Positions 36,152-62,897 of a stretch of DNA of 64,000 nucleotides are shown one piece after another. The position numbers were made by a program, and so were the translations under genes. The notes below the pieces were generated by a model. It saw only the letters and a list, made by a program, of their open reading frames with translations. It had not been told where the DNA came from and did no database searches. The first letter of the stretch is position 1. Each line of letters begins with the position of its first letter. This stretch comes from a phage: the sequence record PZ445448.1; one strand, given 5' to 3'.

Positions 36152-36625
36152 CTAGTCTACCTGAACCCAACCGCCTGATACTTTTTTAAACATTCTTTGG
36201 TTATCACTGCCTCGGAACGGTTTCTTGGTTGGTAAATCTTTTACATACTTACCGTCAATGATGATATCAGCCAGTTTAAGAACATCACTAGAGATATGGT
36301 CAAATGTGAACCCAGTATATACAAGAATAGTTTTCTTGTCACCAAATTTTTCCTTAATTTTCTCCATCAGGCTAATAATATCTGGCTCATTATAGTATGC
36401 TAAGGGTTCTCCACCCAGCAGAGAGATACCGCACACAGACGGGTTATCTAAATCTGACAAGATTTTTTGCAAGTCTTCTTCAGTGAACTCCCTCCCCTTA
36501 TCTTTTGACCAAAATGCCTGATTAAAGCAACCAGGGCAAGCGTGTGGGCACCCAGATACCCACAAGGCAGTTCTAATACCTGGCCCTTCGGTGTAAGATA
36601 TTTCTGTGTATCCGACAATGTTCAT
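36152..36625 (-). CDS. nrdG: anaerobic ribonucleotide reductase activating protein (radical SAM)
   Basis: CPHACPGC radical-SAM cysteine motif; adjacent to nrdD. Confidence 0.75.
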   Translation of the reverse strand: MNIVGYTEISYTEGPGIRTALWVSGCPHACPGCFNQAFWSKDKGREFTEEDLQKILSDLDNPSVCGISLLGGEPLAYYNEPDIISLMEKIKEKFGDKKTILVYTGFTFDHISSDVLKLADIIIDGKYVKDLPTKKPFRGSDNQRMFKKVSGGWVQVD

Positions 36626-36738
36626 AGATACTCCGCATCACATTTAGGGCAATGCCAAATAAAATCGTCTAGTGCCTTGCACCAACGAAGATTGCAACTA
36701 CATCCGCACTTGCAAATTTTATAAATACCTGATGACAT
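36622..36738 (-). CDS. Cys-rich mini-protein (38 aa), probable zinc ribbon
   Basis: AGGAGGTG SD; CKCGCSC...C...HCPKC; stop overlaps nrdG ATG. Confidence 0.45.
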   Translation of the reverse strand: MSSGIYKICKCGCSCNLRWCKALDDFIWHCPKCDAEYL

Positions 36739-36801
36739 ACTGCACCTCCTAGCTCACTGTGTGTCAATAATATGCCACATCCTTGTGGCTTTTGTCAAGA
36801 A

Positions 36802-38010
36802 TCAGCAACCACAACTTCCGTAGTGCTTAACTCGCTCGATAACTTCCGCTTGCTTACCTTTATTGTAAGGACGGGAGTTAGGACTGGAAAGATATCCAGA
36901 CACTCTTCGGATCACTGAGATATATTGTTCATCGTGGCATCCGCACGCAGGGCAGCAGAACCCTTTAGCTGTTGCACTGAACTCACCAGAGAAACCACAC
37001 TTGAGACATTTATCCACAGGTTGGTTAATACCAAAATACATAATGTGTTTATACCCGAAGTCAACAAGAGCCTCTAAAGCATCCAAGTTGTTTTTCAGGT
37101 TAGGTGTCTCTACGTATCCGATGTTGCCACCAGAGGAGATCATAGCAAAACCTTCCTCATACTCCCACTTATCAAAAGGAGAGCTATTTATCCATACTGG
37201 CTGATGGAAACTGTTGGTGAGATATTCATGCTCGTGCTTCAACACTTCCGGATATTCACGATCCAGACAGGTTGCAGCTTTATAGCATAGACTCTCAGAA
37301 GGAGTGCCGTACAAGCTAAACGCTAGTCTACTTTCCTTCTTGTATCGCTCACAAGCATCTCTCATGTGCTGAAGGATTCCAAGAGCTAAAGCCTTGTCAC
37401 CCTCTCTACCCAAAATCTGACAGGTTTCATACACACCAATATACCCAATACTGATGGAAGCGTACCCGTCATAGAAGAGTTTATCAATACTCTCTTCAGG
37501 ATCCAGGCGAGCAAGAGCTCCTTCACACCACATGATTGGGTTCTGCCCTGCCTTTGTTCCTTTTAGACGGTTAACCCTTACAAGGTGAGCCTCGTATGCA
37601 AGATCCAAGTATTCGTCAAGAACTGCAAAGAAATCAACACCTTCCGTCTTAGCTTTTGCCGCAATCATTGGTAGGTTAAGGCTAACAACGCCTAAGTTAA
37701 ATCTGCCAAGATATTTCTCCTCGCCTGTTTCCAAGTCACTGTATTTGCTAAGAAAACTCCGGCAACCCATGCTCGTTACTTTGCCATCTGTCGAGCCTGT
37801 CACTTTTCTATTTAGTGGTACAGATACGAAGTCAGGGTAGATACGTTCTGCACAGCATTCCAGAGCTAATCGTTTCAAATCATAGTTAGGATCCTCAGGG
37901 TTCATGTTGACACCCTCTTCTAGGAAGAACAGCACTTTAGGGAACACAGGTGTGATCCGTTCTTCACCAAGACCCATTTTGTGGACTTTCAAGTAATTTT
38001 TGGTAATCAT
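36802..38010 (-). CDS. nrdD: anaerobic ribonucleoside-triphosphate reductase, C-terminal exon (boundary approximate)
   Basis: C-terminal CCPACGC zinc site and glycyl-radical-type RRVSGYL motif. Confidence 0.7.
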   Translation of the reverse strand: MITKNYLKVHKMGLGEERITPVFPKVLFFLEEGVNMNPEDPNYDLKRLALECCAERIYPDFVSVPLNRKVTGSTDGKVTSMGCRSFLSKYSDLETGEEKYLGRFNLGVVSLNLPMIAAKAKTEGVDFFAVLDEYLDLAYEAHLVRVNRLKGTKAGQNPIMWCEGALARLDPEESIDKLFYDGYASISIGYIGVYETCQILGREGDKALALGILQHMRDACERYKKESRLAFSLYGTPSESLCYKAATCLDREYPEVLKHEHEYLTNSFHQPVWINSSPFDKWEYEEGFAMISSGGNIGYVETPNLKNNLDALEALVDFGYKHIMYFGINQPVDKCLKCGFSGEFSATAKGFCCPACGCHDEQYISVIRRVSGYLSSPNSRPYNKGKQAEVIERVKHYGSCGC

Positions 38011-38318
38011 TCTACCAAAGACCGAGGTATCCAGTCCTAAACTTAATGTGATAAAAGGGGTTTGCGGTCCCCACCCTTATGTTTCCACAAGGCCAGACTA
38101 TCTCTTGCCTGAAATCACACCGTGTGATTCTTAATCAGACCCCTGCGTTTCGGAATCTTCCATAATCCCTACACCAAAAGGTTAGTCGTTACAACCGCCT
38201 CACTCCTTGTGAAGCTAGTCACGGGATTGGCATAGCTTTCGCCTTAGCGTTCCCCGTTAGCCAGCGATCAGCTGACCCCTCATACTAAGGTTAGCAGAGT
38301 TTTAAAACGGCCAGTTTG
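38011..38318 (-). other. candidate self-splicing group I intron interrupting nrdD (exact splice sites not determined)
   Basis: about 308-bp ORF-less GC-rich hairpin-dense insert between two halves of nrdD; AGATAGTCTGG element; ACCTCGGT repeated at both flanks. Confidence 0.5.
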
Positions 38319-39182
38319 TTAACCGTTTACCGAGGTTAGTGTGTTGATCTGATAAAGCAACGTCTGCATGCTGTCAAACACGTCTTTATCTGTCATTTGC
38401 ATTGCAACAGTCTCAGCATCTGGCAACCAATGTTCCTGGCAAAATTTAAGGTTCTTCTCATAAGTCGCCTCAGCATACTGTGCCAAATAATGGTCAATAT
38501 GGCTCATAGTCTGACCCCCATATTGAGCACTAGCTACTGCACTAGAGATTTGGCTAAGGATTGTTGTTGCAACCCCTATTGACTTCGGCTTACTGACATG
38601 GGCGTTACCAATGTTGAATCCGTTTTCCAACATATCTGGATAATTTACCAAACAACAGTTTGTTAACGGACTGATCAAGTAGTCAAGATCATGCACATGG
38701 ATGAAGCCTTTATTGTGCTCTTCTGAAACACGGTCTGGCAGGATCTGTGTTGATGCAAGGTGTTTGCTAAGGATGCCTGCAAGCAGGTCACGATGAGTGT
38801 GTACATGATTGGTAGGCTTATTTGCGTTTTCTTTTGTAAATTCATCACAAGTTCGATCCAAGAAGCCACTAATATCTGCAAGCAGTTTTCCACCTGCCTC
38901 TCTGTTATTATCTCTTGTCTGTCTATACTGGATGTATTCTCTGGCTGCACATTTTAAACCCATATCCATAAGAGCATCTTCAACAAGGATATGGATATTT
39001 TTTACAGAGATCGTGCACTGGTCGGTTGGTAGATTGTTAGCAACAACTTCATTAACCGCGCAGGCGATCCGGTAAGCTTCTTCTTCAGTATGTCCAGACT
39101 CAAGTAAGGCGGACTCTGCCGCCTTGATCACCTTAATTCCGTTATAGAACTCTTCTCTACCGTCCCGTTTTACAACTTTCAC
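38319..39182 (-). CDS. nrdD: anaerobic ribonucleoside-triphosphate reductase, N-terminal exon (boundary approximate)
   Basis: N-terminal ATP-cone-like segment MKVVKRDGREEFYNGIKVIKA; in-frame stop lies inside the presumed intron. Confidence 0.7.
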   Translation of the reverse strand: MKVVKRDGREEFYNGIKVIKAAESALLESGHTEEEAYRIACAVNEVVANNLPTDQCTISVKNIHILVEDALMDMGLKCAAREYIQYRQTRDNNREAGGKLLADISGFLDRTCDEFTKENANKPTNHVHTHRDLLAGILSKHLASTQILPDRVSEEHNKGFIHVHDLDYLISPLTNCCLVNYPDMLENGFNIGNAHVSKPKSIGVATTILSQISSAVASAQYGGQTMSHIDHYLAQYAEATYEKNLKFCQEHWLPDAETVAMQMTDKDVFDSMQTLLYQINTLTSVNG

Positions 39183-62084: not shown

Positions 62085-62159
62085 GCCCTGTTAGCTTAGT
62101 GGATAAAGCAGCGGCCTTCTAAGCCGTTGACACTGGTTCGAGTCCAGTACGGGGTGCCA
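62085..62159 (+). tRNA. tRNA-Arg (anticodon TCT)
   Basis: cloverleaf folded by hand: acceptor GCCCTGT/ACGGGGT, anticodon loop CTTCTAA, T-loop TTCGAGT, encoded CCA. Confidence 0.75.
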
Positions 62160-62163
62160 AATT

Positions 62164-62250
62164 GGGGAGTTATCCCGTAGAGGTAGCGGTGTAGACTGTA
62201 AATCTATTGTCATTGCGACTCGGGTGGTTCGACTCCACCACTCCCCACCA
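62164..62250 (+). tRNA. tRNA-Tyr (anticodon GTA), long variable arm
   Basis: acceptor GGGGAGT/ACTCCCC, anticodon loop CTGTAAA, T-loop TTCGACT, CCA. Confidence 0.7.
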
Positions 62251-62364
62251 AATTTATATTTTTAGATGCATAAATAATACAGATAATGGCATTGATATTT
62301 ATCGTCGTTTATACTAGTCACTAACTGCTCGAAAATCAGTGTCATTATCAGTATAATTTATAAA

Positions 62365-62455
62365 GGAGGGTAGGGAGCAATGGTGCTCAAGCGGTCTTGA
62401 AAACCGTCCCGTTGAGGATGACTCGATGATGGTTCGATTCCATTACTCTCCGCCA
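62365..62455 (+). tRNA. tRNA-Ser (anticodon TGA), long variable arm
   Basis: acceptor GGAGGGT/ACTCTCC, anticodon loop CTTGAAA, T-loop TTCGATT, CCA. Confidence 0.65.
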
Positions 62456-62553
62456 CATTGTTGACCTTGTAATTAAGCGAAAGCCGGAAGCAGAACCGGA
62501 TTATCAAATGTTACAGTCGTCATCGCCGACTAGCAACATGGTCAACATACTGA

Positions 62554-62650
62554 GCTAGGTAAGCCCTTTGGCAAGGGCGAGGATTTTTAATCCTGAAAAT
62601 AGACGAGGTAGTCGTTGAATACATAGGTGGTTCGATTCCATCACCTAGCA
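62554..62650 (+). ncRNA. 97-nt tRNA-like element with irregular anticodon region
   Basis: perfect 7-bp acceptor GCTAGGT/ACCTAGC, D-arm, T-loop TTCGATT, but about 10-24 nt too long and no clean anticodon stem. Confidence 0.35.
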
Positions 62651-62657
62651 CCTTTTT

Positions 62658-62733
62658 GCTGATGTAGCACAATCGGTAGTGCAATTGATTTGTAATCAAT
62701 AGGTTGTAGGTTCAAGTCCTGCCATCAGCACCA
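62658..62733 (+). tRNA. tRNA-Thr (anticodon TGT)
   Basis: acceptor GCTGATG/CATCAGC, anticodon stem ATTGA/TCAAT loop TTTGTAA, CCA. Confidence 0.8.
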
Positions 62734-62734
62734 A

Positions 62735-62809
62735 GGCCCTGTAGCTGGAAGGTTCAAGCAAGCGACTCATAATCGCCAGACGGTGGTTCAATTCCACCCA
62801 GGGCCACCA
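62735..62809 (+). tRNA. tRNA-Met or Ile2 (anticodon CAT), elongator type
   Basis: acceptor GGCCCTG/CAGGGCC with G1-C72, anticodon loop CTCATAA, CCA. Confidence 0.7.
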
Positions 62810-62820
62810 AATAGTAAATA

Positions 62821-62897
62821 CTCCGCGTAGCTCAGCTTGGTAGAGCGCCTGATTTGGGATCAGGAGGTCGAGTGTTCGAATCACTCCGTGGAGACCA
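62821..62897 (+). tRNA. tRNA-Pro (anticodon TGG)
   Basis: D-arm GCTCAGCTTGGTAGAGC, anticodon stem CCTGA/TCAGG loop TTTGGGA, T-loop TTCGAAT, CCA. Confidence 0.8.

Follow-up and report, generated by a model that had tools for sequence, protein, structure and literature searches.

The nrdD (sunY) gene of phage T4 carries a group IA intron, recovered here from NC_000866 with a length of 1033 nt, which encodes the GIY-YIG protein I-TevII near its 3' end. An intron of only 233 nt, annotated as ncRNA, is found in the primase/helicase gene of Pseudoalteromonas phage RIO-1. For the Vequintavirus group, the introns treated in the rV5 paper are those of terL alone (PMC3606486), the list of split phage nrdD genes by Dwivedi et al. 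does not include the group, and the BASEL paper annotated intron boundaries comparatively and mentions them only generically (PMC8594841). The GenBank records of BASEL phages do contain a joined nrdD CDS (HeinrichReichert QXV79969.1; QXV75731.1; QXV84261.1) with an intron 100% identical to the one analyzed here and the same junction, and the existence and junction of the nrdD intron are therefore already public. These records give the join only, from a later Met start; an ncRNA or ribozyme feature is absent from them, as are a structure and a class. In most of the Vequintavirus records listed, nrdD appears as two or three distinct genes or under the label of hypothetical proteins. The searched literature contained nothing specific on a Vequintavirus nrdD intron or its splicing, and no description of its ribozyme class, structure, allele series or relation to T4. 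The BASEL start is an internal Met (MDMGLK..., 636 aa; L001, position 1832, for HeinrichReichert) that leaves out a 71-residue ATP-cone N-terminus, which both rV5 and the phage analyzed here encode, in the latter from a GTG start at 39182.

The window is a stretch of 64,000 nucleotides from an rV5-like Escherichia phage (Vequintavirus), with relatives that are 93-99% identical and phage HeinrichReichert as the best match (99.3%). Judged from its sequence, the minus strand between 38065 and 38321 very probably represents a group I intron within the nrdD gene, 257 nt long, without an ORF and of the phage IA2 / T4-nrdD type. A group I intron had been proposed here in an earlier note, and the idea is well supported by a full-length match to RF00028, a T4-like core, the U.G pair and terminal G, a restored NrdD protein, intron-less alleles, a sibling with an HNH gene and covariation. 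The two parts of nrdD lie on the same strand, as the note had stated, and the ORF list and the Pfam domains agree:

38319-39182, minus strand: nrdD N-terminal ORF, 287 aa, with ATP-cone and Pfam NRDD profile positions 1-154
36802-38010, minus strand: nrdD C-terminal ORF, 402 aa, with NRDD positions 180-562 and Gly_radical (glycyl-radical domain)

Genes for glutaredoxin and nrdB are located upstream and nrdG downstream. The 308-nt gap between the ORFs (38011-38318) contains no ORF of at least 30 aa on the minus strand according to the ORF list, and about 25 NRDD profile positions are absent between the two ORFs taken separately. The insert folds better than shuffled sequences (MFE z = -3.29, with 0/200 shuffles as good), in line with its earlier description as hairpin-dense, while "GC-rich" applies only moderately (49% vs 42.8% for the window). 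The absence of an ORF, the GC content, the better-than-shuffle folding and the split domain profiles together show that the nrdD split is real. Between nrdD and nrdG the window also contains a 38-aa Cys-rich ORF (36622-36738, minus strand; MSSGIYKICKCGCSCNLRWCKALDDFIWHCPKCDAEYL) that is conserved and "hypothetical" in relatives. Elsewhere it carries a tRNA gene cluster (62085-62894, plus strand) with at least six Rfam tRNA matches and two sub-threshold tRNA-Sec-like matches (62164-62246 and 62365-62451).

Joining position 38322 (...AACGGU) to position 38064 (CAAACC...) produces a 707-aa NrdD, which aligns without gaps to T4 NrdD (1h78) and to 9d3x across ...TSVNG|QTPFITL... and covers positions 1-562 of the 562 in Pfam NRDD, compared with 1-154 and 180-562 for the halves. 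This alignment of the spliced protein, which the earlier note had suggested, fixes the junction at SVNG|QTPF. The NrdD of rV5 is uninterrupted, also 707 aa long and identical at 694/706 residues, its gene reading AACGGG|CAAACT at the junction, and many other Vequintavirus genomes are likewise contiguous. When the HeinrichReichert product was built with the AACGGU|CAAACC junction it matched QXV79969.1, a CDS joined from two pieces, residue for residue. Sliding of the junction is excluded by the neighbouring bases, as the first base is U in the intron and C in exon 2, while the last base is U in exon 1 and G in the intron. From the restored NrdD, the intron-less alleles and the match to QXV79969.1 we therefore place the intron at 38065-38321. 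The ORF-less gap described earlier as a ~308-bp insert is thus real, but the intron is 257 nt long and does not coincide with 38011-38318. The features are:

38322-39182, minus strand: nrdD exon 1, 287 codons, ATP-cone and N-terminal NrdD, ending ...AACGGU; colinear with rV5 nrdD nt 1-861
38065-38321, minus strand: nrdD intron, 257 nt, ORF-less, starting UAACAAAC and ending ...GGACCG (terminal G = 38065)
36802-38064, minus strand: nrdD exon 2, 420 codons and stop, starting CAAACC = QTPF...

The predicted excision of 257 nt thus restores the reading frame as judged against T4, rV5 and GenBank. The apparent stop TAA (UAA) of exon 1 is the first 3 nt of the intron, in frame, and the first 18 codons of exon 2, lying upstream of the ATG at 38010 where the mechanically called ORF begins, are 54 nt of exon (QTPFITLSLGLDTSVFGR). 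Read further upstream, the exon-2 frame gives T*GWGP|QTPF..., with a stop and no start codon before the junction, so the 18 conserved residues need splicing. An intein was rejected, as the first codon of the insert is an in-frame UAA and none of its frames is free of stops, and a programmed frameshift was dismissed on the in-frame stop and the non-coding nature of the insert.

Technically, splicing would proceed as follows. The exon end AAACGGU would pair with the internal guide GCCGUUU in the pre-mRNA to form P1, and a free guanosine bound in P7 would attack 3' of the wobble U (38322). In the second step the terminal G (38065) would dock, and the freed 3'-OH of exon 1 would attack after this G, joining ...AACGGU to CAAACC... 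and giving the 707-aa NrdD (..TSVNG|QTPFITL..). Because UAA is the first codon of the intron, unspliced RNA would give only a 287-aa fragment.

The structure is composed of the following elements, in the order in which they are transcribed:

38305-38330, minus strand: P1, exon AAACGGU and intron UA paired with the internal guide UGGCCGUUU (38305-38313)
38294-38299, minus strand: P3 5' strand CUCUGC, paired with GCAGGG
38260-38290, minus strand: hairpins A (CCUUA-GUA-UGAGG) and B (GUCAGC-UGAUC-GCUGGC), inside J3/4; from covariation across 8 introns
38221-38259, minus strand: J3/4 (UAA) and P4-P5/P5a (GAAA loop)-P4', CGGGGAAC...GAAA...CAAUCCCGU; from the Rfam alignment, motif in 80 viral loci
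38193-38220, minus strand: P6/P6a, from fold and covariation
38183-38189, minus strand: P7 5' strand ACGACUA, with the same sequence in the T4 nrdD intron, paired with UAGUC
38152-38182, minus strand: P7.1 (ACC-UUUU-GGU) and P7.2 (GGGAUU-AUGGAA-GAUUCC), a subgroup IA hallmark, then GAAAC
38141-38146, minus strand: P3 3' strand GCAGGG, from fold and covariation
38107-38140, minus strand: P8, a long hairpin, the loop of which holds the HNH ORF in the FFH2-type sibling
38096-38106, minus strand: J8/7 and P7 3' strand AAGAGAUAGUC
38075-38092, minus strand: P9, CCUUGUG-GAAA-CAUAAGG

All helices of the catalytic core (P4-P6, the P3-P8/P7 pseudoknot and the G-binding P7) were located. The 5' splice site carries the U.G wobble at 38322 in P1 (AAACGGU/GCCGUUU) that is expected of group I introns, and the last intron base is G (38065), with the boundary set by the intron-less alleles; the FFH2 intron likewise ends ...GACAG. 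The earlier note had pointed to AGATAGTCTGG as resembling the 3' strand of P7, and it was found at 38103-38093 as the J8/7-P7 3' element, corresponding to AAGAGAUAGUC. As in T4 nrdD, and as a trait of subgroup IA2, P7.1 and P7.2 lie between P7 and the P3 3' strand and are followed by GAAAC and P3'. Another classic IA2 trait is absent, as the P3 5' strand is not joined to P4 by a short single-stranded J3/4, and P10 is weak with only ~2 bp.

A default Rfam scan at the gathering threshold reported no intron in the window. With permissive filters the covariance search that had been called for in the earlier note aligned RF00028 over its full length (model 1-253) to 38331-38075 on the minus strand with 29.8 bits, the E value being 1e-5 in the local search and 1.1e-3 when the whole window is considered. 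This score is below the gathering cut-off of 50, so the default scan missed the intron. The P2/P3 region of the model does not fit the layout of the nrdD intron; the introns L033 and L082, which share that layout, score 53.1 and 51.3 bits and thus above the cut-off.

Whole-intron MAFFT misaligned the variable hairpins and was replaced by hand-segmented helices and helix-only pseudo-sequences for eight introns, among them five compact ones of the same layout from viral contigs (L021, L033, L045, L059, and L082). With helix registers chosen by hand, 260/262 cells were paired, while controls with slid registers paired at only 30-37%. Changes on both sides were present in 28/34 pairs, and the covariation score was 0.98 vs 0.26 for shuffled data (0/500) in a helix-only pseudo-alignment of 7 of the 8 introns. 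Compared with FFH2, compensatory changes are found in P1 (exon A/guide U to exon C/guide G, giving CAACGGU/GCCGUUG), in P3 (CUCUGC/GCAGGG to CUCUCC/GGAGAG) and in P9 (CCUUGUG/CAUAAGG to CCCUGUG/CACAGGG), and the change of the P3 3' strand in the IMG/VR contig L055 (GCAGAG) is compensatory as well. The L055 and window copies of the intron are 97.7% identical, and the stem substitutions noted between them keep the pairing.

The nrdD site is polymorphic in Vequintavirus, with three states: empty, the 257-nt ORF-less intron, and a 798-nt intron with an HNH endonuclease. The 257-nt form is present in 13 records at 98.8-100% identity and in contig L055. The 798-nt form, of the FFH2/FV3/slur16 type, occupies the same insertion site and has the same layout, including two hairpins in J3/4. 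Its first 141 nt are 86% identical to the intron in the window and its 3' end (P7'-P9) is homologous, while P7.1, P7.2, and P8 are unrelated in sequence and P1, P3, and P9 differ by the compensatory changes described above. Only the FFH2-type intron has a 177-aa HNH_3 / I-HmuI-like endonuclease ORF in the P8 loop; no intron-encoded endonuclease was found in the 257-nt intron among ORFs of at least 30 aa on the intron strand.

When the window is compared with rV5, the mismatches are most frequent next to the intron: the final 30 nt of exon 1 contain 8 and the opening 30 nt of exon 2 contain 4, against 0-3 per 30-nt bin over most parts of the flanks. Those within 30 nt of the site are all synonymous, and only two amino acid differences (residues 343 and 357) occur within 100 codons on either side. 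On sequence grounds this cluster looks like a co-converted or recoded homing site. Three alleles at one site suggest that the intron probably spread by endonuclease-driven homing, the ORF-less form having then lost its ORF or relying on an endonuclease in trans. Mobility and catalysis are both what we infer, the evidence at hand being sequence, structure, covariation, and population data.

Further variation was noted in the same gene. A second cluster of mismatches to rV5 and FFH2 (7 and 3 per 30 nt) lies at window ~37795-37855 on the minus strand, +210 to +270 nt from the junction and just upstream of a second intron site of relatives; it may be another co-conversion tract. This second nrdD intron, found in 241Ecol014PP and A135 (L002 2537-3306 and L003 2037-2806) and absent from the window, is ~770 nt long, contains an HNH ORF and gives an Rfam group I score of 35.3 bits. 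Its insertion point, ...VTSMG|CRSFLS, immediately precedes the codon of a conserved Cys (window-equivalent ~37755-37765, minus strand), and its 5' end (AAACUAUAACUGCUCAUGUAAAAU) closely resembles the guide region of the T4 nrdD intron. Phage A135 also has a 310-aa ORF at the 3' end of nrdD and the nrdD-nrdG spacer (L003 3891-4823; window-equivalent 36750-36824), which is probably a free-standing homing endonuclease. Phage V18 (L006, KY683736, locus ~1592) has window-type exon flanks without the intron and without 2 extra nt (CA), a loss that frameshifts nrdD after SVNG. The gene is unannotated there, and either imprecise intron loss or an assembly error could account for it.

The evidence presented above has to be weighed against other explanations of the split. 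One is that the insertion does not splice and nrdD is truly split, with halves that are translated separately and assembled post-translation as reported for NrdA/mobE of Aeromonas phage Aeh1, and non-splicing HNH insertions do exist in related Certrevirus phages (PMC7344957). Both halves are indeed intact ORFs and exon 2 offers an in-frame ATG at 38010, but a start there drops the 18 conserved residues that align to T4 NrdD, no convincing Shine-Dalgarno precedes it on inspection, and the exon-2 frame does not have the start codon between the upstream stop and the junction that the Aeh1-type arrangement involves. As the intervening RNA moreover has all of the group I core, maintained by compensatory changes, we consider a non-splicing split most unlikely. 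A decayed remnant, where the ribozyme is inactive and nrdD a pseudogene in this lineage, would agree with the lack of an endonuclease ORF, with the sub-threshold RF00028 score and with phage V18, where nrdD can be seen disrupted at the same site. This is very unlikely as well, since the exons have neither stops nor frameshifts and retain ~98% protein identity to the intact NrdD of rV5, the intron is conserved in the 13 genomes, all core elements are intact relative to T4, and pairing is preserved between the window and L055.

The location of the junction was also at issue. The earlier note had correctly observed that the 8-mer ACCTCGGT is present twice, at 38336-38329 (LTSV, exon 1) and 38028-38021 (DTSV, exon 2), although the second copy starts 18 nt upstream of the exon-2 ATG and not 25 nt, and had suggested an intron of ~308 nt with its splice junction within this direct repeat. 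The 8-mer occurs nowhere else in the window, but two copies are not unusual there (expected 1.02; at least two in 35/100 shuffles) and the first is not conserved in rV5. A junction in the repeat would moreover delete NGQTPFITLSLGLD, which is conserved from T4 to the phage analyzed here, and in the intron-less alleles both TSV-coding segments are present with nothing missing between the two. Both copies are thus exon, and with the intron-less relatives and the joined GenBank CDS placing the junction at AACGGU|CAAACC, the chance that it lies in the repeat is negligible. The spliced 257-nt intron is the reading that we retain: a real and ordinary phage group I intron as far as its sequence can tell, with splicing as a prediction.

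In one respect the layout departs from that of T4. The order in T4 is P3-UAAAA-P4, while the intron analyzed here has P3-UAA-(hairpin A, G, hairpin B, U)-AA-P4 and thereby a block of 32 nt in J3/4, which in the catalytic core of group I introns normally makes base triples with P6. A reading that puts P3 directly next to P4, the one found in the Rfam alignment itself, was rejected on the lack of a complement before P8 in the window, FFH2, L045, and L033, and is also opposed by the distal strand, which covaries and matches T4 P3. The two-hairpin layout explains why the default Rfam scan misses the intron. When viral contigs were scanned with the P4-P5-P4' motif 80 loci were obtained, and ~26/58 (~45%) of the distinct metagenomic phage introns with the AACGGGGAAC...CAAUCCCGUG core have the two-hairpin layout. 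Locating P3 in the 80 loci by an automatic motif heuristic gave too much noise, since P7 is displaced by ORFs and chance matches to short helices occur, and the heuristic was dropped. In contigs L008-L087 the conserved 5' module of the layout reads ..GGUG-AA-hairpin-GU-hairpin(GU..GC)-UAA-CGGGG, and the remaining introns with this core have the classic td / T4-nrdD layout. BLAST of L033, L082, and the L019-type 5' module against named phages gave the layout in none besides Vequintavirus.

A keyword-limited search of the literature gave no description of a two-hairpin or "P3.1/P3.2" layout in J3/4. It is conceivable, though we hold it doubtful, that the nrdD intron belongs to a so far undescribed structural subclass among the phage IA2-like group I introns, with P2 absent and a conserved hairpin pair in J3/4; in this proposed subclass the second J3/4 hairpin is always closed by G-C and U.G. 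If the subclass is true, E. coli phages that can be cultivated, for example the BASEL strain HeinrichReichert, would be a tractable model for it. A 2025 study makes the case that phage IA2 introns are heterogeneous and ill served by the Rfam and GISSD models, and calls for a revision (PMC11878797). The sub-threshold RF00028 score obtained here fits this heterogeneity, and the two-hairpin layout supports the recent calls to revise the models for phage group I introns (PMC11878797).

For annotation, the locus is correctly read as one NrdD of 707 aa, its gene being interrupted at 38065-38321 by the 257-nt intron. The putative homing site is well resolved, with three alleles (empty, ORF-less, and HNH) and a synonymous tract resembling co-conversion.

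Among the known systems, the RIO-1 intron is likewise compact, ORF-less, P2-less and of IA type with a similar core, but it resides in another host gene and has the classic layout, where P3 (CCAAUC) is followed directly by UAAU and P4 without hairpins in J3/4. The T4 intron shares the host gene and the P2-less start (UAAC..., P1, UAAAA, P3), and both nrdD introns have an in-frame stop at their very start or close to it. P7, GUA, GAAAC, P3, and J8/7-P7' match element for element: P7 is ACGACUA in both, followed by GUA and GAAAC, P7.1/P7.2 are present, P3 is near-identical (UCUGCC/GGCAGA in T4 vs CUCUGC/GCAGGG), and J8/7-P7' reads AAGAUAUAGUC in T4 vs AAGAGAUAGUC in the window. The two introns differ in size and coding content (1033 nt with I-TevII vs 257 nt and ORF-less), in the 32-nt hairpin block of J3/4, which T4 does not have, and in position: the T4 intron splits the Tyr codon in AYE-Y-EVNTLFSSNG, while the intron in the window lies 32 nt downstream, between NG and QTPF. 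Being present in the same gene, only 32 nt apart and with a related core, the pair is useful for studies of intron site-switching and of endonuclease gain and loss.
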